Source: an uncultured Eggerthellaceae bacterium
GTDB taxonomy: Bacteria; Actinomycetota; Coriobacteriia; Coriobacteriales; Eggerthellaceae
Direction: 5' to 3'
Assembly: GCA_903789415.1 (NCBI GenBank)
Contig: CAIFEG010000004.1
Span: 1-64,000, forward strand
DNA: 64,000 nt
Shown in pieces: positions 1 to 22,534 of this stretch. The position numbers and the translations under genes are program-made. The notes beneath the pieces were generated by a model. It ran no database searches and was not told where the DNA came from. It saw only the letters and a program-made list of their open reading frames with translations. Every line of letters begins with the position of its first letter. Position 1 is the stretch's first letter.

Positions 1-19
1 TCGTTCGGGGAAAAAGAAG

Positions 20-1015
20 GTTGAAGATCTGCCTTCTGACTAGCTGATATACTTATTTAAAGAAGTAATGAAGTGCTGACTTTGTTGAAGATCTGCCTTC
101 TGACTAGCTGATATACTTATCAAACGCGCTGAGAAGCCATATGAGGGGTTGAAGATCTGCCTTCTGACTAGCTGATATACTTAGACGTGGCAAAGACCTA
201 CGCGACGCAAGGTTGAAGATCTGCCTTCTGACTAGCTGATATACTTATCTTGGGTGTGCTGTTCTGAAATGGGGGGTTGAAGATCTGCCTTCTGACTAGC
301 TGATATACTTATTTAGTAGTTGCGGTAGTCTGTTGCTTGGTTGAAGATCTGCCTTCTGACTAGCTGATATACTTATCACGCGATTGGTTTATGCCTCAAA
401 CAGGTTGAAGATCTGCCTTCTGACTAGCTGATATACTTAGTGGCTGCATTGATGGCTGGTTGAATTCGTTGAAGATCTGCCTTCTGACTAGCTGATATAC
501 TTAGATCAAATGCAAGCAAAGATCCCTTTTGGTTGAAGATCTGCCTTCTGACTAGCTGATATACTTATTTGTTCCGTGCGTTTGGTTTGATCTGAGTTGA
601 AGATCTGCCTTCTGACTAGCTGATATACTTAGAATTTAAGGACTAGTTGTCCTTGATATGTTGAAGATCTGCCTTCTGACTAGCTGATATACTTACCTGC
701 ATCGCCTTTTCAACATCGCTATCGTTGAAGATCTGCCTTCTGACTAGCTGATATACTTACAAGAAGTAAATCATCGCCATCGGATTGGTTGAAGATCTGC
801 CTTCTGACTAGCTGATATACTTACGGAACAGATGGCAGGTTAAGAATTTCTGTTGAAGATCTGCCTTCTGACTAGCTGATATACTTAGAAGTACTGCTCT
901 CATGATTGTCAATATGTTGAAGATCTGCCTTCTGACTAGCTGATATACTTAAATAGGTAGGCGCATCGTCTTTCACGTCGTTGAAGATCTGCCTTCTGAC
1001 TAGCTGATATACTTA
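20..1015. CRISPR. CRISPR array: 16 identical 36-bp repeats (GTTGAAGATCTGCCTTCTGACTAGCTGATATACTTA), 15 unique 28-bp spacers, period exactly 64 bp. Bases 1-19 look like a truncated spacer, so the array probably continues upstream of the window.
   Basis: Repeat starts read directly at 20, 84, 148 ... 980. Spacers are all different. The repeat has no strong internal hairpin, which is typical of tracrRNA-dependent systems. Confidence 0.95.
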
Positions 1016-1073
1016 AGCAATTTTTGCTATGCATTGAAAGCGAGTTGCTCGCTTATTTAATAAGCGCTTGTAG

Positions 1074-1104
1074 GTGAGTATATCTGCTGGTCAGAAGCTT
1101 CAAC
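1074..1104. ncRNA. Inverted degenerate copy of the CRISPR repeat (anti-repeat). Candidate tracrRNA anti-repeat or leader-encoded anti-repeat.
   Basis: GTGAGTATATCTGCTGGTCAGAAG/CTTCAAC matches the reverse complement of the repeat (about 25 of 30 positions), with a 6-nt deletion that would produce a bulge in a repeat:anti-repeat duplex. It is flanked by small hairpins at 1016-1070. Confidence 0.35.
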
Positions 1105-1326
1105 AAATGTTTTTGATTAATATTTGATTTTAATCTTTAGTGACGTATAGAATTCAAATATTAATTGAAAGTGAAGAAAAATTTGACTCTTTTTCCTTGT
1201 TTTTGATCCTTCTAAGAAGGGATAAAACAAAAAATTCTTTTAAGAAAACGAGCATTTTTTGACTGATTCCTAATTATTATTGGCCAAAACATAAAATCAG
1301 CACAATTCGAAAAACATAGTAAAGAA

Positions 1327-1354
1327 GAAAGCCGCCTCGCGTGAGACGGCTTTT
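1327..1354 (-). terminator. Rho-independent terminator downstream of the POT transporter gene (minus strand).
   Basis: GC stem GCCGCCTC..GAGACGGC followed by a T-rich run on the minus strand, directly 3' of the CDS that ends at 1423. Confidence 0.5.
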
Positions 1355-1422
1355 CACTTTTCTATGTGAGTGCAACGCGCGTTACACAAAGAAGTGCGCA
1401 GCGTGTGCAGCAGTTGAGTCCT

Positions 1423-3003
1423 TTACTTCACGCCACCCATAAGCTTGTCGATGCGTTTGACGAAGAAGAACATGATGATGCCTGCGATCACGCTCACCAC
1501 GCCAATTGCTAAGAAGTACTGCACTTCGGTAGCCGGTGTATAGAACTGCACGATCTGTGCGTTTACTGCTTGGCCAGCGGAGTCAGCCAAGAACCACATG
1601 CTCATCATCTGAGACTCGAACGCCTTAGGCGCAAGCTTTGTGGTTACCGAAAGACCGATTGGCGAAATCAACATTTCAGCGATCTCGCAGAGGAACCAAG
1701 ACATGACCAGCCATAACGGGCTTACCTGACCATCTGTTCCCCAAAGTGCACCAGGAATTGCCATCCATGCGTACGACAAGCCGGCGAAAATCAAACCGGT
1801 AGCAAATTTGCTTGGTGCCGTAGGCTGATTTTTCCATGTATCCCACAGGTGTACGAAGAACGGGGTCAGGATCATGATGAACAGCGGGTTGAGCGTCTGG
1901 AAGTTTGCAGGATCCAGCGTAATTGGCCCAATGTCCAGAATCGTTCGAGTTTGTGCGAATACCGCAAGAACTGATGATCCAGATTCTTCGATAGCCCAGA
2001 AGATTGCAGCGGCAATAAACAGCGGGACATATGCCCAAACACGGCGGCGTTCTTCATGATTTACCTTTGGAGAACACAGAATCACGATGAAGTAAATGAT
2101 AGGAATTGCAATTGCCACGATAGAACAAATATCAATCACGCGATCGATATTGAGCCATCCGACAACAGCAAGGGTAATCATTACCACAGCAACGATGACT
2201 GCCACGATAACAATGCGGCGAACGATTACGTGAAGTTGATCCTTCTCTAGTGGGTCATTGGGCTTCATACCGATGTTGGATAAGTACTTGCGGCCACCCA
2301 AAACGTATTGGAGCAGGCCGATTGCCATGCCGATTGCAGCAAGACCGAAGCCCGCATGGAAGTTATACGCTTCACCAAATAGTTGAATACCAAAGCCTGA
2401 TGCAGCCCATGGAACTAAGATTGGCGAAATCGCGGCACCGAGGTTAATACCGAAAACGAACAGTGAGAATCCTGAGTCGCGGCGCTTGTCGCCCGGTGCA
2501 TACAAGCCACCAACCATGTCGGAAACATTCGGCTTCAAAAAGCCTGTGCCGATAACCAAGAGTGTGATTGACGCGTATAAAAATCCTTCTGCAGCGCCAA
2601 TAGACATACCTGGCCAGTTAATTGAAAGGCAAATGTGGCCGAACATAATAAGCAGGCCGCCCCAGAAAACGGTGCGCCGACTGCCAAGCAGGCGGTCGGA
2701 TACCCAACCACCTATAACGCCTGATAAATAAACCAGCGATCCGTAGATGGACATGATCGCAAGTGCGGTGGTTTGATCCATCCCCAAGCCGCCTGCGGTG
2801 ACGGCGTAGTAAAGGTAGAAAACCAGGATGGCGCGCATGCCGTAGTAACTGAAACGTTCCCACATCTCTGTGAAGAACAATGTTGAAAGACCATGGGGCT
2901 GGCCAAAAAATGCGGTGTCGTTATTCTTTTTTGGTTTACCTGGATCTTGTTGAATTGGTTTTTGGGCGTCTTCCAAAGTGCCCTCTGAATTTGTACTAGA
3001 CAT
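1423..3003 (-). CDS. Proton-dependent oligopeptide transporter (POT/PTR2 family di/tripeptide permease).
   Basis: 526-aa polytopic membrane protein. PTR2 signature region FYLYYAVTAGGLGMD..GGWVSDRLLG. GGAGA SD before the ATG. Confidence 0.85.
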   Translation of the reverse strand: MSSTNSEGTLEDAQKPIQQDPGKPKKNNDTAFFGQPHGLSTLFFTEMWERFSYYGMRAILVFYLYYAVTAGGLGMDQTTALAIMSIYGSLVYLSGVIGGWVSDRLLGSRRTVFWGGLLIMFGHICLSINWPGMSIGAAEGFLYASITLLVIGTGFLKPNVSDMVGGLYAPGDKRRDSGFSLFVFGINLGAAISPILVPWAASGFGIQLFGEAYNFHAGFGLAAIGMAIGLLQYVLGGRKYLSNIGMKPNDPLEKDQLHVIVRRIVIVAVIVAVVMITLAVVGWLNIDRVIDICSIVAIAIPIIYFIVILCSPKVNHEERRRVWAYVPLFIAAAIFWAIEESGSSVLAVFAQTRTILDIGPITLDPANFQTLNPLFIMILTPFFVHLWDTWKNQPTAPSKFATGLIFAGLSYAWMAIPGALWGTDGQVSPLWLVMSWFLCEIAEMLISPIGLSVTTKLAPKAFESQMMSMWFLADSAGQAVNAQIVQFYTPATEVQYFLAIGVVSVIAGIIMFFFVKRIDKLMGGVK

Positions 3004-3224
3004 AATCTCCCTTTAAAAGGTTACTGAAGCGTTAAGTATATCCCTCTAATGCACTAAAGCGGTTCCGGATGGAAAAATAACGCATAGTTCACGTATTGTA
3101 TGGGTGCATAGATACATGGGAATATACAAAAACCGGAATAGGTGCGGCGAAATAATACGAAAGTGGCGGGATCAGGCCAGGTCATTTATATTTAAATCAG
3201 AACATTTAAGGAGCCCTGAACCAC

Positions 3225-13381: not shown

Positions 13382-15478
13382 ATGCGCAAGTTTAAAACTG
13401 AGAGTAAAAAGCTTCTCGATTTAATGATCAACTCAATTTACACCAATAAGGAAATTTTCCTTCGAGAGCTTATTAGTAATGCGTCAGATGCTTCCGACAA
13501 GCTGTATATGAAAAGCCTGACCGACGACAAGGTGAATGTCGGCAAGAGCGATTTGGATATTAGGGTCACCTTTGATGAAAAAACGCGCACCCTCACGGTT
13601 TCCGACCACGGCATCGGAATGAATGATGCAGAGCTTGAAAAGAACTTGGGCACCATCGCACATTCCGATAGTAACGAGATTAAAGAAGCGCAAAAAGCTG
13701 CAGAAAAAGCTCGTGAAGAGGCTAAACAGAAGGCCGAAGCCGAAAAGGTTAAAGCTGAAGATGCCGAAAAGTCCGGCGAGAGTGCGGATAAAGCAGCCGA
13801 TACCGAAGCGGCGAAGGCATCAGCCGAATCTTCTACCGAAACCAGCGCGTCTGGCAATACCGACACCAAAGCCGATTCCGAAAAGCTCGACCAGGCAGCT
13901 GCCGAAGCTGATTCGCCCGACATCATCGGACAATTCGGCGTGGGCTTCTACAGCGCATTCATGGTAGCGAGCAAAGTTCGCGTTGTTTCCAAGAAATATG
14001 GCGATGACCAAGCATGGGCTTGGGAAAGCGACGGTGTTGAGGGCTACACGATCACAAAGGCAGAAAAAGATACCTGGGGCACTGACGTTATCCTCACCAT
14101 CAAAGAGGGCAAGGATTACGATCATTACCTGAGCGAATATGGCTTGCGCGGCATCATCAAGCGCTATTCGAACTACGTGCGTTACCCCATCAAGATGATG
14201 GTCAGCCACGAGGTTGAACAGCCAAAGCCTGAGGATGCGGGCGACGATTACAAGCCGCAGTACAAGACCGAGCGCAAGCTTGAAGTCGTCAATTCCATGG
14301 TTCCTATCTGGAAAAAGCGCAAGAGCGAGGTCAAGCAGGAAGACTACAACGAGTTCTACAAGACCACGTTCCACGATTATGCGGACCCGCTGCGCACGAT
14401 TAGCTTCCATGCCGAAGGTCTGCTTGAATACGATGCGCTGCTGTTTATCCCAAGTCGTATGCCAAGCGATCTGTACAGCCGTGAATACAAGAAGGGCTTG
14501 CAGCTGTACAGCTCAAATGTCCTGATCATGGACAAGTGCGAAGAGCTGTTGCCTGATGAATTCAACTTCGTCAAAGGTGTGGTGGACAGCCACGACCTAA
14601 ATCTGAACATCTCGCGCGAGACACTTCAACATGACAGCCGCATGCAGGCAATCGCCCGCAAGGTTTCGCACCGCATCAAAGAGTCGCTGTGCCAGATGCG
14701 TGACAACGACCGCGAGGATTACGAGAAATTCTTTACGAACTTTGGCCGTGGTCTGAAGTATGCGATCTACGCGAGCTTTGGTGCGAAGAAGACTGAGCTG
14801 GCAGAACTTTTGCTGTTCTATTCAGCGAAGCAGAAAAAGATGGTCACCCTTGACGAGTATCTGAAGGCCGAAGGCGACGACGTGAAGAACATTTACTATG
14901 CAGCCGGTGATTCCACTAAACGGCTTTCGTCTACGCCTATGGTGCAGACGGTTCTTGACAAGGGTCACGATGTGCTGCTTTGCACGCAGGATATCGATGA
15001 CTTCTGCATGACCGCAATGCAAAGCTACAACGACAAGCCGTTGAAGAACGTTGCAAGTGGTGATCTGGATCTCGATTCCCAAGACGATAAAGATGCCGCA
15101 AAGAAGATCGAAGGCGAAAACAGCGATCTGCTGAAGGCTATGAAAGATACCCTGGGCGATCGCGTAACCAGCGTGAACATTTCCACCACGCTCACCGATT
15201 CTCCTGCTGCGCTTACGGCGAAGGGCCCAATTTCGCTTGAGATGGAAAAGGTTATGGCAAATATGCCTGGTGCCGAAGGCGTCAAGAGCCAGCGTGTGCT
15301 TGAAATCAATGCGAAGAGCCCCGTGTTTAAGTCGCTGACTGCGGCACAGGCACTCGGCGATAAGGACAAGGTATCAACCTATACCGACATCCTGTATAAC
15401 CAGGCGATGATGCTTGAAGGTATGCCGCTGGAAGATCCTGCGAAGTACGTCAAAGAGGTAAATGACCTCATGAAATAG
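13382..15478 (+). CDS. htpG: Molecular chaperone HtpG (Hsp90) with an ~80-aa charged K/E/A-rich linker.
   Basis: N-terminus KEIFLRELISNASDA is identical to the Hsp90 signature. GHKL ATPase, middle and C-terminal domains are recognisable. Confidence 0.95.
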   Translation: MRKFKTESKKLLDLMINSIYTNKEIFLRELISNASDASDKLYMKSLTDDKVNVGKSDLDIRVTFDEKTRTLTVSDHGIGMNDAELEKNLGTIAHSDSNEIKEAQKAAEKAREEAKQKAEAEKVKAEDAEKSGESADKAADTEAAKASAESSTETSASGNTDTKADSEKLDQAAAEADSPDIIGQFGVGFYSAFMVASKVRVVSKKYGDDQAWAWESDGVEGYTITKAEKDTWGTDVILTIKEGKDYDHYLSEYGLRGIIKRYSNYVRYPIKMMVSHEVEQPKPEDAGDDYKPQYKTERKLEVVNSMVPIWKKRKSEVKQEDYNEFYKTTFHDYADPLRTISFHAEGLLEYDALLFIPSRMPSDLYSREYKKGLQLYSSNVLIMDKCEELLPDEFNFVKGVVDSHDLNLNISRETLQHDSRMQAIARKVSHRIKESLCQMRDNDREDYEKFFTNFGRGLKYAIYASFGAKKTELAELLLFYSAKQKKMVTLDEYLKAEGDDVKNIYYAAGDSTKRLSSTPMVQTVLDKGHDVLLCTQDIDDFCMTAMQSYNDKPLKNVASGDLDLDSQDDKDAAKKIEGENSDLLKAMKDTLGDRVTSVNISTTLTDSPAALTAKGPISLEMEKVMANMPGAEGVKSQRVLEINAKSPVFKSLTAAQALGDKDKVSTYTDILYNQAMMLEGMPLEDPAKYVKEVNDLMK

Positions 15479-16479: not shown

Positions 16480-18081
16480 TTACAGTTGTGGTTCGCAGCA
16501 GACCATCTTCACGTCAACGATGCCATCAATTGCGCGCACCTTATCCAAAATCTCGTCAGGGATGTCTTTTTCGATCGCGATGGTCATGATGTTTTGGCCT
16601 TTCTCTTCCGAGCGGCCTACCTGCATCCCGGTGATGTTGATGCCGGCTTTGCCCAAGATGGTCGAAATCTGGCCAATCATGTTCGGCTGGTCACGGTGTG
16701 GTGCTACCAGGAAATATCCTTTTGGCTCGAAGTCCACGCGGAAGCCGTCAATCTTTGCGATGCGCGCCTCGCCCTTGTTGAAGAGCGTGCCGACCACTTT
16801 GTGCTGGCCCTTTTCGGTATCAAGTGTCAGGCGAATTGCATCAACGAACTCGGGGTCACTATTCAGCTTAGTTTCCTTGACGGCGATATGGCGATTATTC
16901 GCGACGAGCGCCGCGTTTACATAGTTCACCGAATCCTGCATGACCGGGTTCAAAATGCCCTTCAGCACTGCAGTGGAAAGCAGATTGGTGTCAACATCGG
17001 CCAGGTCACCGATGTATTCGATAGTCACGCCGGTCACCGCTCCATCGCACAGCGAAATCGCCAGCGTGCCCATGCGCTCGGCCAGCTCGAAATACGGCTT
17101 AATCTTTGCGTAAACCTGCTTAGAAACCGGTGCCATGTTGACGGCTGTCGGAACTGGTTCGCCGCGCAGTGCCTGCATAACGCCGGTTGCCACGTCGACT
17201 GAAACCGCGCGCTGTGCTTCGCGCGTATTCGCGCCAATGTGAGGCGTTAAGACAACATTCTGCATACCCAAAAACGGATTTGCATCCTTGGTGAGTGGCT
17301 CTTTTGGATATACGTCAATACCCGCGCCCGCAATGTGTCCCGACTTTAGCGCGTCGGCCAATGCATAAATATCCAAAACCGCGCCGCGCGATGCGTTAAT
17401 TACGTACGCGCCGTCTTTCATCTTTGCAATTTCATCTTCGCCAATCATGCCGCGCGTTTCGTCAGTCAGTGGCACGTGCATGGTGATGTAGTCTGATTCT
17501 TTCAGGAGCGTGTCCAGGTCGACCAGGTCAACGCCCAGTTGGTCGCCGCGCTCACGCGGAATGTAGGGGTCATAGCCAATCGTGCGCATTTCCATGGCTT
17601 GCATGCGTTTTGCTACGCGCGATCCGATGCGGCCGACGCCGATGATACCGATCGTCTTGTTCTGCAGCTGCTGGCCGACGAATTTCTTGCGGTCCCAGCG
17701 ACCTTCCATGATGGATTGGTTTGCCTGGGGAATAAAACGCGAGACGCCAATGATCAGGCCGCACGTAAGCTCGGTGGCCGCCAATGTATTTGATTCAGGG
17801 GTATTAACCACGACAATGCCGCGCTTGGTGGCATCGGGAATATCAATCGAATCGACGCCGACGCCTGCACGACCGATGACCTTCAAATGATCCGCCGCGT
17901 CGATGACTTTTTTGGTTACGTGTGTCATCGAGCGGGTGATAAATGCGTCGTATTTGCCAACGACCTTCACGAATTCGTCTTCATTCATGTTTGGCAAAAT
18001 GTCGACGTCATATCCAGCCTTTTTAAGCTCTTCTACGCCATCGGTTTGTACGTCATTCGTTACGAGAATTTTTTCAGCCAT
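16480..18081 (-). CDS. serA: D-3-phosphoglycerate dehydrogenase, long form with ASB/ACT domains.
   Basis: 533 aa. NAD-binding GxGxxG (GIIGVGRIG). 2-hydroxyacid dehydrogenase catalytic residues. Confidence 0.9.
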   Translation of the reverse strand: MAEKILVTNDVQTDGVEELKKAGYDVDILPNMNEDEFVKVVGKYDAFITRSMTHVTKKVIDAADHLKVIGRAGVGVDSIDIPDATKRGIVVVNTPESNTLAATELTCGLIIGVSRFIPQANQSIMEGRWDRKKFVGQQLQNKTIGIIGVGRIGSRVAKRMQAMEMRTIGYDPYIPRERGDQLGVDLVDLDTLLKESDYITMHVPLTDETRGMIGEDEIAKMKDGAYVINASRGAVLDIYALADALKSGHIAGAGIDVYPKEPLTKDANPFLGMQNVVLTPHIGANTREAQRAVSVDVATGVMQALRGEPVPTAVNMAPVSKQVYAKIKPYFELAERMGTLAISLCDGAVTGVTIEYIGDLADVDTNLLSTAVLKGILNPVMQDSVNYVNAALVANNRHIAVKETKLNSDPEFVDAIRLTLDTEKGQHKVVGTLFNKGEARIAKIDGFRVDFEPKGYFLVAPHRDQPNMIGQISTILGKAGINITGMQVGRSEEKGQNIMTIAIEKDIPDEILDKVRAIDGIVDVKMVCCEPQL

Positions 18082-18277
18082 GGTTTTCTCCCCTTTGGTT
18101 CTGGTGCAACATGTTTATATACTATACAAAATTACTAGGAATTACGAGGTGAATTTTGCGGGTGCACAGCATAAGGTGGTATTGCAGCGGTGACCTGCGA
18201 AAAGTGTCATGCTGCGTGTGTAGTCTGTGTGACCTGTGTTGATGCGCGGTCTGTGTGACCTGTGTTGTTTGTGACCT

Positions 18278-19372
18278 CTATGATCGAGAAGCGTGGGCGT
18301 GCTGATAATCACGCATGAATTTTGCTAAGACTTTGCAGTCGTCCATCGTGACCGCGTTATACGTAGAGACGCGACAGCCTCCGACGCTGCGGTGACCCTT
18401 CACGCCGATGAGGTTCTGCTTGGCTGCTTCGGCTGCAAAATCAGCTTCAAGTTCGGGTGTTGCCATATTGAATGTGATGTTCATCAGGCTGCGCGAACCT
18501 GGGCGGGCGTGGCCTTTATAAAAGCCATCGCTCTCGTCGATAACCGAATAGATAAGCCCCGCCTTTTCCTTGTTGATCTCGTACATTGCGTCAAGGCCGC
18601 CGAGGTTTTTAAGCCATTTAGCCACCTTGCCAAGAAAATAGATGTTGAAAACCGGTGGGGTGTTGTAAGTGGAATCCTTTTCGACAAACGTCTTGTACTG
18701 CAGGTATGGAGCGATATCGGTACGCGCGCGGCGGAGCAGTTCATCCTTGATAATTACGACCACACAGCCCGCAGGTCCCACATTTTTCTGAATGCCCGCA
18801 TAAATAAGATCGAAGTTCGACACGTCGACTGGACGGCTTAAAAAGTCGCTCGACATGTCTGCAAACAGCGGCACATCGAAGTGCGGGAACTGCCACCATT
18901 CTGTGCCATGGATCGTGTTGTTTACCGTGATATGTACGTAGTCGGTGTCAGGCTTCAGAACCCAGGTGCCACTCGCGGGAATTTCCGGAATGTAGCTGAA
19001 ATTATCATCTTTGCTTGACGCAAGTTCATAGGTTTCGCCATAAAACGAGGCTGCGGCCTCGGCTTTTGTTGCCCACGAGCCGGTGTTTATATATGCGCCC
19101 CGATGAATCAGGAAGTTTTGCGCATGCAAAATAAACTGCATGGAGCCACCGCCCTGCATAAACAGCACATGGTAACCATCCGGGATCTTCAGCAGGTCTT
19201 TGATGTCTTGTTCGGTTTCGGTCTGCATCTCCTGGTATTCGGGGCTGCGATGTGAGATTTCGACGATGCTCATTCCCGTTCCTTTGTAATCAAGGAACTC
19301 TTGCTGCACTTCCTTGAGTACGGGAAGCGGCATAGCGGCAGGACCTGGATTGAAGATATGAGCACGAGTCAT
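18278..19372 (-). CDS. serC: Phosphoserine aminotransferase.
   Basis: Starts MTRAHIFNPGPAAMP (SerC signature). The internal ATG at 19372 has a GGAGA SD. The ORF-track start at 19438 is probably too far upstream. Confidence 0.9.
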   Translation of the reverse strand: MTRAHIFNPGPAAMPLPVLKEVQQEFLDYKGTGMSIVEISHRSPEYQEMQTETEQDIKDLLKIPDGYHVLFMQGGGSMQFILHAQNFLIHRGAYINTGSWATKAEAAASFYGETYELASSKDDNFSYIPEIPASGTWVLKPDTDYVHITVNNTIHGTEWWQFPHFDVPLFADMSSDFLSRPVDVSNFDLIYAGIQKNVGPAGCVVVIIKDELLRRARTDIAPYLQYKTFVEKDSTYNTPPVFNIYFLGKVAKWLKNLGGLDAMYEINKEKAGLIYSVIDESDGFYKGHARPGSRSLMNITFNMATPELEADFAAEAAKQNLIGVKGHRSVGGCRVSTYNAVTMDDCKVLAKFMRDYQHAHASRS

Positions 19373-19501
19373 AGAAATCTCCTTCGTGTTGCAGTTGGTG
19401 TTCGTCCATTGTGCAACGGCAGGTGCAGGAGGCGGCAACTCTTTTTAAGAGCGGCGCGAAATTCCTGCGGAAAGGCTGGCGGCATCTATGCAAGATGACC
19501 T

Positions 19502-20878
19502 TTATGCGGTCAGTGTATTAATTGGTAATACATACACACCATCATTTGTGCGCTGACGAGCATACGTGCCCTTACCCACCACAACTGCCAAAAAGACAGG
19601 ATCAGGATTTCGAGCAGCAGTGTTGGCTTTTACCTTGTCACGCAGTCGCAGCAGATTGGCCGCAGCTTGGTCTGTTTTTGCTTCGCCGAGCTTTACTTCT
19701 AAGGCTGCCCACCGACCGTCGCGCAATTCGATGATGATATCGGCTTCAAGTCCATCTGCGTCTGAATAATAACGAAGTGGCTGTGTTTGTGCTCCCGGTA
19801 AAAGACTCGCGTACACTTCAAGATCGTGCACACAAAGTGATTCAAACAATATGCCGAAAAGTTGCCCGTCTTGTAGCAAACGTTCGGGGGATACTGCTAA
19901 AAGAGATGCTGCCATTGAAGGGTCATCAAGATAGCGTTTTGGCTTCGTGCGTACGCGGGAGCGAGAGCGCACAGGTGCATCCCAGCCGGGCAGTGTCTCG
20001 ATGAAGTAGTTTAACTCGAAACCTGTGAGGTACGATGACACTGTTTCAGGTGAAGGCGGATTATCCGACCCTTCTGCAGCATCCATCGCAAGGGTCTGTA
20101 ATGTGGCGCTTGTCCCCACATTGCGCGCGAGAGCAAGGGCAATTCGCCTGCTGAGCTGGGGATCTCTTCCAAGGCGCCGCATACTGATATTAAAAAGCGC
20201 GGAAAGATACTCGTCTACAGATGCCTGTGCACGTTCAAGTGGTTGGTTGATCAGGGCTGGCCAGCCGCCGTGACAAATGATTTCTGCGAGTTGCTCTAGG
20301 GTGAGTTTCGATTGCTGGGGCGCAAATTTCCCTTCAAACAAATCAGCTAATGAAACAGTTCCGCTTGAAATACCGAGTTCTGCCAATGTCATGGTGTGCA
20401 TGCGAATGCGTCCGATGCGTCCTGCGCCGCTATGACGATTTTCTTTGTCGAGCGGAGTTGAAGAACCAGTAAGAATGAACTGTCCGGGGGTGTTGGAAGA
20501 ATCGTCAATGCTGTGCCGCACATGGTTCCATATTGTTGGCACGTCCTGCCATTCGTCAACTGCATGGGGCTGATCGCCAATGAGAGCAAGCTCGGGCTCT
20601 TCGGTATAGATCTCAGGATTTTCATCTACCCGTGTGATGCTGCGAGCGAATGCTTCAGATGTCCATGACTTTCCGCACCAGCGTGTTCCACATACTTCAA
20701 TCGCACCAAACTCTTTCAGGCGCTTTTCCATGAGGCGGTCAACAAGGCGTGGTATGTATGTGTCGCGTTTTAAGGGTCCGTAGGCAGACATGTTGGACTT
20801 CCAATCAAACAGTGCAGATACCTGTAAATTGTTTAACCTCATTATAAGGCAATCGTGCTTTTCGAGGATTCTCAACAT
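19502..20878 (-). CDS. AAA-family ATPase with DUF4143 domain (AAA_14/DUF4143 type).
   Basis: Walker A GTRWCGKS. Typical DUF4143-family architecture, 458 aa. Confidence 0.65.
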   Translation of the reverse strand: MLRILEKHDCLIMRLNNLQVSALFDWKSNMSAYGPLKRDTYIPRLVDRLMEKRLKEFGAIEVCGTRWCGKSWTSEAFARSITRVDENPEIYTEEPELALIGDQPHAVDEWQDVPTIWNHVRHSIDDSSNTPGQFILTGSSTPLDKENRHSGAGRIGRIRMHTMTLAELGISSGTVSLADLFEGKFAPQQSKLTLEQLAEIICHGGWPALINQPLERAQASVDEYLSALFNISMRRLGRDPQLSRRIALALARNVGTSATLQTLAMDAAEGSDNPPSPETVSSYLTGFELNYFIETLPGWDAPVRSRSRVRTKPKRYLDDPSMAASLLAVSPERLLQDGQLFGILFESLCVHDLEVYASLLPGAQTQPLRYYSDADGLEADIIIELRDGRWAALEVKLGEAKTDQAAANLLRLRDKVKANTAARNPDPVFLAVVVGKGTYARQRTNDGVYVLPINTLTA

Positions 20879-20972
20879 CGATTTTCGAGGAAATTCAACC
20901 GTGATTTTCGAGTGGCTTCAATCGGTATTTTCGAGCCATATCATTCGTGTTTTTCGAAAACCTCAGCTATTT
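20858..20972. repeat. Five tandem 23-bp repeats (ATTTTCGAG-N5-TCAA-N5) with period exactly 23 bp. They begin on the start codon of the DUF4143 ATPase and run upstream.
   Basis: Copies begin at 20858, 20881, 20904, 20927 and 20950. Confidence 0.85.
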
Positions 20973-22534
20973 TGCTGCTCCCTCATTCTCTTTTCGGTTT
21001 CTGATTCGCCCTGCAAGCGCAGTACCGCATCCTTGAGCGCTTTTCCGATGGACACGCCCACTTTTGCGGCGAGGGCAAAGAACGTGACGTACTCAAGACG
21101 CCCTGCCCACATCTCAATGATATAGACAATTTCCAGGCCAGCAGGCATTCCTGGTGCAGCAATTCCCGTGGTAATGCCGCCGTTTGCTGCCATTGCGATG
21201 CTTTCAACCATCGAATCAAGCGCGTTATTTCCGCAGGCAATTCCGCTGAGGGTACCCACCACATATGCGACGATGAACAGCAGGAATACGGTCATTGCGT
21301 TTTTGACCTCGGTGTTGTCTAGAATACGTCGGCCCATGTGATAGTACGAGGTATTCAGGCGAACCGAAGATGGTTCGACGGCACGACGAATGGTTATCCA
21401 AGCTGCTTTTACCACCATTCCTAAGCGCATGAATTTAATACCGCCTGATGTTGACCCGGCGCCTGCGCCAATAGCCATCGCAATCGCAATTACAAACATC
21501 CCGCCACCAGGCATTGCATCGTTCATCTGGCTTTGGCTTAACAGCCCGACTCCGGTAGAGGTTCCGGCGGAAATAATCGTGAAGAATCCCATGCGCAACA
21601 TCGTCGTGACATTGCTCATGAACGGGGAATTCGCCATGATAATCGCCAGTATAAGCGTGAGCGACATCCACCAAATGATGCCGGTGCGCGTTTCGATGTC
21701 TTTAAAAAAGTCGCGTATGCGGCCATTCTGCATTGCAATTTGAAGCGAGAAGTTTGTGCCACCGAAAAGCATCACAATCATCATGATGAATTCAAGCACC
21801 ACCGAGTGGTAGGAAACTAAGTTGATCTGCGTGGGCACGAGGCCACCCGTGTCATAGCAGGTGATCGACAACCACAGGGAATGTAACACGGAGTTTTCCA
21901 ATGAAAGATCTTTTGCGAGCATGATGATGGTGCACACGATCGTGGACACAAGAATAACTACCGCGGATGTGCGAAGCATGAGTCGTGCAGACGTCATGAG
22001 GTTTGGGATTACGTGTTCGTTTCGCCCTTCGGCGTTGTAAAGGCTTCCCGCGGCGTGGGAGACACCTCCGAACGAAAGACCGACGACGACGAGCCCTAAG
22101 CCACCGAGGAACTCCATGGTAAAACGCCACATATTGTCGGCATTCGACATGTGATCGAGGTCTTGGACGACGGTCGCACCGGTGGTAGTAAAAGCGGATA
22201 CCGATTCGAATAGTGCATCCAGGTAGGTTTGGTAATGGCCAGAGAAAAATAGAGGAAGCGACCCGATTACACTGATGAAGAACCAGGCAAAACCTGTGAC
22301 GGCAAGTGCTTGCTGTGCCGATAGTTCACCTGGCGTGACATCTATCATGGCCAGACCCAGACCAATGATAAGTGCGATTCCCGCGCAGAATAAATAGCGA
22401 GCTACGGCCTGCCATTCGCCAAAAGCAATGCCCAACACCATGGGCACCAACATGGCTAAACCAGAATACGCAATCAAAAGACCGAGATAATGCGAGACTC
22501 TGCGCAGGTCTGTCGAAGAAAACCGTTGCCACAT
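20963..22534 (-). CDS. trkH: Trk/Ktr-type potassium uptake membrane subunit (TrkH-like).
   Basis: 523 aa. Repeated M1-P-M2 pore motifs with GGxG-like selectivity sequences. Confidence 0.8.
   Translation of the reverse strand: MWQRFSSTDLRRVSHYLGLLIAYSGLAMLVPMVLGIAFGEWQAVARYLFCAGIALIIGLGLAMIDVTPGELSAQQALAVTGFAWFFISVIGSLPLFFSGHYQTYLDALFESVSAFTTTGATVVQDLDHMSNADNMWRFTMEFLGGLGLVVVGLSFGGVSHAAGSLYNAEGRNEHVIPNLMTSARLMLRTSAVVILVSTIVCTIIMLAKDLSLENSVLHSLWLSITCYDTGGLVPTQINLVSYHSVVLEFIMMIVMLFGGTNFSLQIAMQNGRIRDFFKDIETRTGIIWWMSLTLILAIIMANSPFMSNVTTMLRMGFFTIISAGTSTGVGLLSQSQMNDAMPGGGMFVIAIAMAIGAGAGSTSGGIKFMRLGMVVKAAWITIRRAVEPSSVRLNTSYYHMGRRILDNTEVKNAMTVFLLFIVAYVVGTLSGIACGNNALDSMVESIAMAANGGITTGIAAPGMPAGLEIVYIIEMWAGRLEYVTFFALAAKVGVSIGKALKDAVLRLQGESETEKRMREQQNS

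Follow-up and report, generated by a model that had tools for sequence, protein, structure and literature searches.

The inverted, degenerate copy of the CRISPR repeat at positions 1074-1104 of the window (the whole 64,000-nt stretch of DNA analysed here) belongs to what is apparently an undescribed, recurrent array-end feature of its type II-C clade. Judged by its sequence, this element is not the tracrRNA that loads Cas9. The reading we favour, if tentatively and at somewhat less than an even chance, is that the element would act as the 3' arm of a cis-acting RNA hairpin with the last repeat and would cap transcripts of the array. The features concerned are as follows, in window coordinates except for the last.

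20-1015, plus strand: visible part of the CRISPR array, with 16 identical repeats; the array continues past the window's left end
980-1015, plus strand: last repeat, predicted 5' arm of a hairpin with 1074-1104 and, in type II-C, the entry site for new spacers
1005-1013, plus strand: extended -10-like motif TGATATACT in the last repeat (repeat nt 26-34)
1016-1073, plus strand: 58-nt insert between the hairpin arms, with small hairpins at 1016-1028 and at 1038-1054 or 1050-1066 (the last two mutually exclusive)
1074-1104, plus strand: inverted degenerate repeat copy (element 'B'), pairing with repeat nt 14-36 and nt 1-7 and leaving nt 8-13 without a partner
1105-1420, plus strand: remaining AT-rich flank, the leader in the acquisition sense
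1328-1353, no strand assigned: GC-rich hairpin between the flank and the convergent transporter gene, scanned as the terminator of that minus-strand gene
17256-17353 of locus L001, minus strand of L001 (the cas9 strand): canonical tracrRNA ('A'), ~270 nt upstream of cas9 and outside the window

The repeats are 36 nt long (GTTGAAGATCTGCCTTCTGACTAGCTGATATACTTA; 16 identical copies) and are separated by 28-nt spacers. Exactly 58 nt past the last of them the plus strand reads GTGAGTATATCTGCTGGTCAGAAGCTTCAAC. Aligned with the reverse complement of the repeat, TAAGTATATCAGCTAGTCAGAAG[GCAGAT]CTTCAAC, this element shows one clean 6-nt deletion, which corresponds to repeat nt 8-13 (AUCUGC in RNA), and 3 substitutions over 30 aligned positions (27/30 identical outside the deletion). 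An earlier note on this DNA had reported an inverted repeat copy 58 bp past the array with a 6-nt GCAGAT deletion, which the alignment confirms, but had counted two substitutions where we find three. In plus-strand RNA, two of these turn into G.U pairs and one into U.U. A 21-nt core of the element with 2 mismatches is the sole inverted match to the repeat in the 64-kb window (0.00 expected, 100 shuffles), and the local alignment score of the element is 41.5, against a best score of 26.5 +/- 1.6 (maximum 30) when the 21.6-kb locus is shuffled. In its sequence the element is literally an anti-repeat: on the strand that is transcribed, it complements the crRNA repeat. Inspection by eye did not bear out 1016-1104 as an inverted spacer-repeat unit in the register of the array.

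The cas genes lie beyond the window's left edge. They were recovered in L001, a second assembly of the same locus, which was found via the convergent transporter gene (1423-3003, minus strand), has a flank identical to that of the window and carries the array collapsed to one repeat. Read in the orientation of the window, the locus begins with a TetR gene, followed by cas9 (1191 aa), cas1, cas2, the array, the element and the transporter, with the cas genes and the array all on the plus strand. Neither csn2 nor cas4 is present in the L001 locus, and the set of cas9, cas1 and cas2 without either of these defines it as type II-C. The locus is thus tracrRNA-dependent and not one of the tracrRNA-independent type I or III systems, which the earlier note had named as an outcome that would speak against its interpretation. 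The closest solved Cas9 structures are AnaCas9 (4OGC, E = 4e-194), CdCas9 (6JOO) and AceCas9 (8D2K), from Actinomyces naeslundii, Corynebacterium diphtheriae and Acidothermus cellulolyticus, respectively. A scan of genome contigs for the exact repeat and for Cas9 peptides gave no match.

Repeat-internal promoters are established for type II-C arrays (PMC12080349), in which spacers are added at the last repeat, transcription runs towards it (PMC12080349, PMC13187072) and the extra repeat is the first repeat of the array (PMC12080349). The degenerate repeats of relatives of our locus are likewise found at the cas2-proximal, sense 5' end, opposite the side of the element. A motif of the form TGnTAnnnT occurs at the same repeat position in 34 of the 37 unique repeats of the clade, ending 1-2 nt before the repeat 3' end, and in none of the 37 on the antisense strand; its chance rate is 0.9% per 14-mer. 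Because the motif is found on the plus strand only and the true tracrRNA is complementary to the plus-strand repeat, the array is most probably read on the plus strand, towards the element, and the crRNAs would be plus-strand transcripts. As II-C repeats each carry a promoter and spacers enter at the last one, this places the element in the flank on the acquisition side, where transcription leaves the array. The alternative offered earlier, an anti-repeat encoded in the leader of an array transcribed from the minus strand, had placed the element correctly on the acquisition side but had the wrong strand. Apart from the promoters within the repeats, nothing upstream of the element makes a plausible promoter, and the motif in the last repeat would give rise to an 'orphan' transcript starting near 1019-1021.

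Two details of the array boundaries may be added. At the sense 5' end, 2 nt separate the cas2 stop codon from the first repeat (L001 12024-12029), which leaves no intergenic leader or terminator there, so that read-through from the cas operon would run straight into the array. At the other end, the first two bases past the last repeat are AG in most loci, the window included (AGCAA...), and this could be a leader-anchoring dinucleotide for integration.

The tracrRNA upstream of cas9 reads TATAAAGGAGAT-GCAGATCTTCAAT-AAG-TGATGGCCTTGTTTGCCATCA-TGATTTCTCAGC-...-GAGAGGATCTTCCTCTC-...-GCCCCGCAAGGGGC-TTTTTTT and is made up of a 13-nt anti-repeat, an AA linker, a first stem-loop (SL1), a GAUUUCUC motif, a second stem-loop (SL2) and a terminator. 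Its anti-repeat pairs with repeat nt 1-13 (-20.2 kcal/mol), and the remainder folds into the two stem-loops and the terminator, GCCCCGCAAGGGGC (GCCCC/GGGGC) followed by T7, which the terminator scan calls. With few exceptions, the relatives examined have this design upstream of cas9 too: a short anti-repeat is followed by (U/C)AA(G), by a stem-loop of 7 bp whose loop has 7 nt, by GA(A/U)U(G/U)CUC and lastly by a terminator. When 24 loci are aligned, SL1 has compensatory changes at 7/7 pairs, and 90.5% of its cells are paired, compared with 35-51% in controls with slid partners. The layout is that of the AceCas9 guide, with its 12-bp duplex, AA linker, SL1, linker and SL2 (PMC7733487), and the position, on the strand of cas9 and upstream of that gene, is the one published for the II-C tracrRNA of B. 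bombi (PMC4521832). For the tracrRNA core we built a covariance model (R1) from loci that include L001; it scored 48 bits on L001 itself and 37-66 bits on five loci held out of the model.

A -10-like TATAAA sits where the 5' half of a full-length anti-repeat would be in this tracrRNA, and TAnnnT does likewise in relatives; from these sequences, the tracrRNA promoter seems to have replaced half of the anti-repeat. In L018 the tracrRNA (R1, 50.9 bits; 15259-15317, minus strand) lies not upstream of cas9 but sense-upstream of an inverted array, beyond cas2, which indicates that tracrRNA genes do not keep to one place across the clade.

The earlier note had proposed chiefly that the element is itself the tracrRNA, pairing with crRNA and loading Cas9. 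It does complement the repeat on the transcribed strand within a type II locus, and its position past the far end of the array, which the note considered unusual, is in fact a known one for tracrRNAs: Chylinski 2013 (PMC3737331) lists four places where anti-repeats typically occur, among them the region downstream of the array. Nevertheless, we consider this proposal very improbable. A complete tracrRNA with the conserved scaffold of the clade stands upstream of cas9, and R1, which recognises it, found no match over the whole window; with filters off over 1-1500, its best score was 7.5 bits and none fell over 1074-1130. The element is followed by AA, and a weak hairpin with a 7-nt loop is possible there, but the scaffold sought after it (AA linker, SL1 with a 7-nt loop, GA(A/U)UGCUC) is absent both by R1 and by comparison of the tail, whose resemblance to the tracrRNA scaffold is at chance level (67/500 shuffles as good). 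Compared in this way with the tracrRNAs of the nearest Cas9 relatives, as the earlier note had advised, the element is no member of the family. No intrinsic terminator follows it, the scan finding none on the plus strand in 850-1500. Furthermore, whereas the clade tracrRNA pairs the first 12-13 nt of the repeat contiguously, the element pairs nt 1-7 and then skips nt 8-13, which lie inside the 12-bp duplex held by AceCas9 (PMC7733487). The element and its downstream sequence were also considered as a decayed duplicate of the tracrRNA, and neither the covariance model nor the shuffled pairwise test showed any similarity. A scan of 1-3200 against Rfam (E <= 10) returned chance matches to snoRNA, miRNA and sRNA families only and no tracrRNA family.

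The element resembles the type II tracrRNA anti-repeat (Deltcheva 2011; Chylinski 2013, PMC3737331) in being a degenerate repeat copy that would form a bulged duplex with the crRNA repeat. It differs in having no Cas9-binding tail, no terminator and no complement to the guide-adjacent nt 8-13, and in belonging to a locus that already has a complete tracrRNA. Chylinski 2013 did not find anti-repeats for A. cellulolyticus, C. diphtheriae, B. longum and B. dentium (PMC3737331), all of which have Cas9 of the window's kind. The two anti-repeats of our locus also rank in the wrong order for any pipeline that takes the best anti-repeat as the tracrRNA. That of the true tracrRNA scores 26, under the shuffle maximum (30), and such pipelines would choose the element (41.5) in its place, giving a non-functional guide scaffold for the window's Cas9.

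When 952-1125 is folded, 980-1015 pairs with 1074-1104 at a minimum free energy of -57.5 kcal/mol (z = -4.35, 0/200 shuffles as good). Repeat nt 1-7 and 14-36 are paired in the predicted fold, nt 8-13 are bulged and the 58-nt insert becomes a multibranch loop. The duplex between element and repeat has a predicted energy of -39.7 kcal/mol on its own and consists of 12 + 10 bp with one mismatch. Folding the element with the repeat, a check that the earlier note had suggested, thus yields the duplex with the AUCUGC bulge that it had foreseen. Because the unpaired segment falls within the nt 1-13 bound by the tracrRNA, the hairpin leaves part of the tracrRNA site exposed, and nt 8-13 could serve as a toehold.

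These pairings can be joined into a cis-acting mechanism, the one that we favour. Transcripts from the repeat-borne promoters would run rightwards to the spacer-acquisition end, and one begun at an upstream repeat would pass the last repeat and reach 1074-1104, where the element would fold back on the last repeat. Pairing of nt 14-36 and 1-7, with nt 8-13 bulged, would then cap the 3' end of the pre-crRNA. By analogy with relatives that have a U-run right after the pairing, such a cap might stop or weaken read-through from the array; by analogy also, it might stabilise or define the 3' end of the newest crRNA, or provide a duplex for RNase III to cut. Each acquisition would renew the 5' arm, because the last repeat is duplicated when a spacer integrates. 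The predicted fold, which outdoes 200/200 shuffles, the lack of plausible promoters upstream of the element other than the repeat-internal ones, and the reading of II-C arrays towards the last repeat, where spacers enter (PMC12080349, PMC13187072), all agree with this mechanism. Against it, transcripts from the last repeat's own promoter would be without the 5' arm and hence uncapped, and with nt 1-7 covered by the arm, the tracrRNA could be impeded in binding the newest crRNA.

Alternatively, the same orphan RNA, starting at ~1020 and containing the element but no repeat, might act in trans as a second, scaffold-less anti-repeat. It would pair with nt 14-36 of every repeat and thereby create an RNase III duplex, or act as a sponge that tunes crRNA-tracrRNA pairing. 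The element lies ~55 nt downstream of the inferred repeat-internal promoter, and because the repeats are identical the -39.7 kcal/mol duplex would be available at each. Coverage of the repeat is also complementary, the tracrRNA taking nt 1-13 and the main helix of the element nt 14-36. Duplexes of 12 + 10 bp are the size of classical RNase III substrates in type II systems (Deltcheva 2011, as cited in PMC12080349), and the element would offer RNase III a long duplex beyond the reach of the tracrRNA's 13-nt anti-repeat. We nonetheless judge the trans-acting RNA distinctly unlikely. The 3' part of the element would compete with the tracrRNA for nt 1-7, and there is no terminator to bound a discrete small RNA. 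Many relatives, moreover, have an arm of just 10-12 nt that starts 0-4 nt past the repeat; a transcript from the last promoter would lose much of such an arm, which could thus work only in cis.

A more far-reaching version, which we rate as still less probable, would have the anti-repeat function split in the clade, with the 13-nt tracrRNA loading Cas9 and a second scaffold-less RNA, transcribed from the promoter in the last repeat at the acquisition end, pairing with the remaining two-thirds of each repeat. If this were true, the second RNA would supply the long duplex for RNase III processing or for regulation of crRNA output, and the conserved gap at nt 8-13 would keep the two RNAs from competing.

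Termination by the cis-acting hairpin is doubtful in the window, where the U-run (T5, 1110-1114) starts 5 nt after the stem, the stem encloses the 58-nt insert and the 6-nt bulge, and the terminator scan does not call the last repeat plus element. The rest of the flank is AT-rich, as stated in the earlier note (GC 24.5% at 1101-1300 vs ~50% in the neighbouring gene), and the small hairpins that the note had placed in the insert are present at those positions. A small hairpin straight after the last repeat is also found in the relatives L027, L035, L060, L043, L053 and L086. Apart from the T5 run, the flank at 1105-1420 has a hairpin at 1204-1222. The GC-rich hairpin at 1328-1353 is followed by TTTT on the plus strand too and, from this sequence, may also stop read-through from the array. 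An AT-rich inverted repeat with 20-nt arms that are 85% complementary occupies 1111-1130/1151-1170, and the sole sigma-70-like promoter match on the plus strand, at 1124-1153 (TTGATT, 18-nt spacer, TAGAAT), overlaps it.

We used 90 related loci, 80 from a metagenome scan and 10 obtained by exact protein look-up, to look for the array-end pairing elsewhere. The energy test was applied to the 21 non-redundant loci of the Cas9 clade with a usable array end; nearer Cas9 relatives (45-55% identity) contributed few of these, owing to contigs stopping inside arrays, one array cut by an IS21 element and one degenerate last repeat. For the last repeat and the downstream flank of the same locus, the mean pairing energy was -23.1 to -24.5 kcal/mol, compared with -17.2 kcal/mol for the flanks of other loci and -16.4 kcal/mol for upstream flanks (0/10,000 permutations as low; Mann-Whitney p = 2e-6 and 1e-3). 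The sequence of an arm follows the repeat of the locus to which it belongs, as in CCCCTCCCCT/AGGGGAGGGG, CCAATCCTCT/AGAGGATTGG and CCGTCCCCCT/AGGGGGACGG, among others. Many of the arms leave a similar segment of the repeat without a partner: nt 8-13 in the window and L018, nt 9-14 in L028, L032, L082 and L084, and nt 9-15 in L047. In L084 and L019, the last repeat and flank are called as an intrinsic terminator by a generic scan, with 14 and 12 pairs followed by TTTTCC and TTTTCTC, respectively, and L032, L049, L028, L027, L034 and L008 look terminator-like by eye. Termination by array-end pairing is therefore plausible in these relatives. Compared with them, the arm in the window is the longest, the insert there is the largest, and no U-run directly adjoins the pairing.

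This recurrence in 21 loci, with arms matched to their own repeats, with terminator calls in two loci and with a recurring unpaired segment that lies in the tracrRNA-bound stretch (nt 1-13), also argues for the cis-acting hairpin. Some observations do not fit it as well. The arm is not universal, as several of the nearest relatives (L086, L087 and L089) have no clear one. Mismatches in the arms show no G.U bias (7 G.U vs 6 A.C) and thus no strand-specific sign of selection at the RNA level. In addition, the complementarity could persist through repeated copying from the repeat and not through selection.

The same observations bear on the possibility that the element is a relic with no function of its own, a decaying inverted duplication of the repeat or an old anti-repeat left at the acquisition end, which could have arisen by template switching during repeat gap-filling or by recombination between inverted copies. 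A fairly recent copy would fit the 27/30 identity to the repeat bar one deletion, the frequent lack of the element in the nearest relatives and the missing G.U bias, and the orientation flips described below suggest that inversions between inverted repeat copies occur in the clade. We consider a relic unlikely, if a serious rival, because its occurrence would be expected to be sporadic and unpatterned. Instead, complementarity to the own repeat is enriched across divergent loci whose repeats differ at many positions, the same internal gap is found in loci with Cas9 only ~36-40% identical to the window's Cas9, and in some loci a U-run directly follows the arm.

It is also conceivable that the complementarity matters as DNA, as a leader signal that marks the acquisition end and helps Cas1-Cas2 to pick the last repeat, like a leader-anchoring sequence. 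The element is on the spacer-acquisition side of a II-C array (PMC12080349), the arms of most relatives abut the last repeat (0-4 nt) in flanks that usually begin with AG, and a double-stranded DNA signal would be expected to show no G.U bias. However, the distance from arm to repeat ranges from 0 to 61 nt across loci, which is hard to square with a fixed protein-DNA geometry, and the arm is absent from several loci with long, apparently active arrays. We found no precedent for such a signal in the literature searched and regard it as a poor prospect.

Within the clade (loci L002-L090), arrays occur in both orientations with respect to the cas9-cas1-cas2 genes. They are co-directional with these genes in the window, L002-4, L032/33, L069, L074, L086, L087, L089 and L090 and opposite in most Bifidobacterium-like loci, and a repeat-complementary arm is located at the sense 3' end of the array in both orientations. 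The flips suggest, on sequence grounds, inversions between inverted copies of the repeat. Three array ends are of note individually. In L005 (15068-15130), one degenerate repeat follows cas9-cas1-cas2, and 10 nt on ATCAAAGGGAAT complements repeat nt 19-30; this is either an array collapsed in assembly or a minimal module of repeat plus arm. In L087 (16146-16205), a Gordonibacter-like array is followed, directly past its last repeat, by tandem TGCGACCC units, which may stem from faulty assembly or from expansion of a simple repeat in the leader. In L090 (16545-16570), the array stops mid-repeat (GTTGGAAATCACACTCCATTACAGCT|CTTCCC...) beside several IS21-family genes (16757-21315) and seems to have lost its acquisition end to an insertion or deletion.

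Among known systems, the nearest likeness is to the leader-repeat hairpins of II-A and type VI arrays, which block extraneous crRNA (Liao 2022 as cited in PMC12080349; PMC13187072). In both cases a leader-side flank complements the adjacent repeat, is conserved in relatives and is proposed to form an RNA hairpin. Theirs is upstream and traps the first, spacer-less repeat (PMC12080349, PMC13187072), whereas the flank in the window is transcriptionally downstream and pairs with the last repeat, after the newest spacer. No leader-repeat hairpin has been identified in II-C according to Feussner 2025, which cites Liao 2022 for this (PMC12080349); that study analysed only the upstream side of II-C arrays (PMC12080349). 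The Rho-independent terminators that it describes beside II-C arrays insulate the array by a hairpin and U-run, a form that L084 and L019 share, but they stand upstream of the first repeat and, unlike the element, are not built from repeat sequence (PMC12080349). The scaRNAs and mini-arrays of Shmakov 2023 (bioRxiv 10.1101/2023.03.03.530964) are likewise solitary repeat-derived sequences in CRISPR-cas loci outside the array. They are in repeat orientation, however, and give crRNA-like guides with a partial spacer, while the element is in anti-repeat orientation and has no guide-like partner. In the literature searched, of which coverage was incomplete, we did not come across any flank arm described as pairing with the last repeat, and this counts as absence of evidence only.

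Prior work on the self-tuning of arrays concerns the transcription-upstream side, with leader-repeat hairpins in II-A and type VI and, in II-C, with terminators and first repeats that are mutated. Should pairing with the last repeat prove routine in actinobacterial-type II-C systems, it would mirror these solutions at the opposite end of the array, and it would bear on the crRNA of the newest spacer, on the transcription boundary of the array and possibly on the site of spacer integration.

The gene that converges on the array (1423-3003, minus strand) encodes a POT/PTR2 peptide transporter whose nearest named relatives are from Lactobacillaceae (~67-70% identity). HtpG points to an uncultured Eggerthellaceae-like member of the Coriobacteriia, and the contrast between the two genes may reflect horizontal transfer. 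We looked for an orthologous element beside the transporter in a sister species (L091; transporter 76% and HtpG 87% identical) and found at this site, instead of CRISPR-Cas, a type I restriction-modification system (hsdS, hsdM and hsdR, L091 11689-17390). The site beside the transporter thus looks like a hot spot for defence genes.
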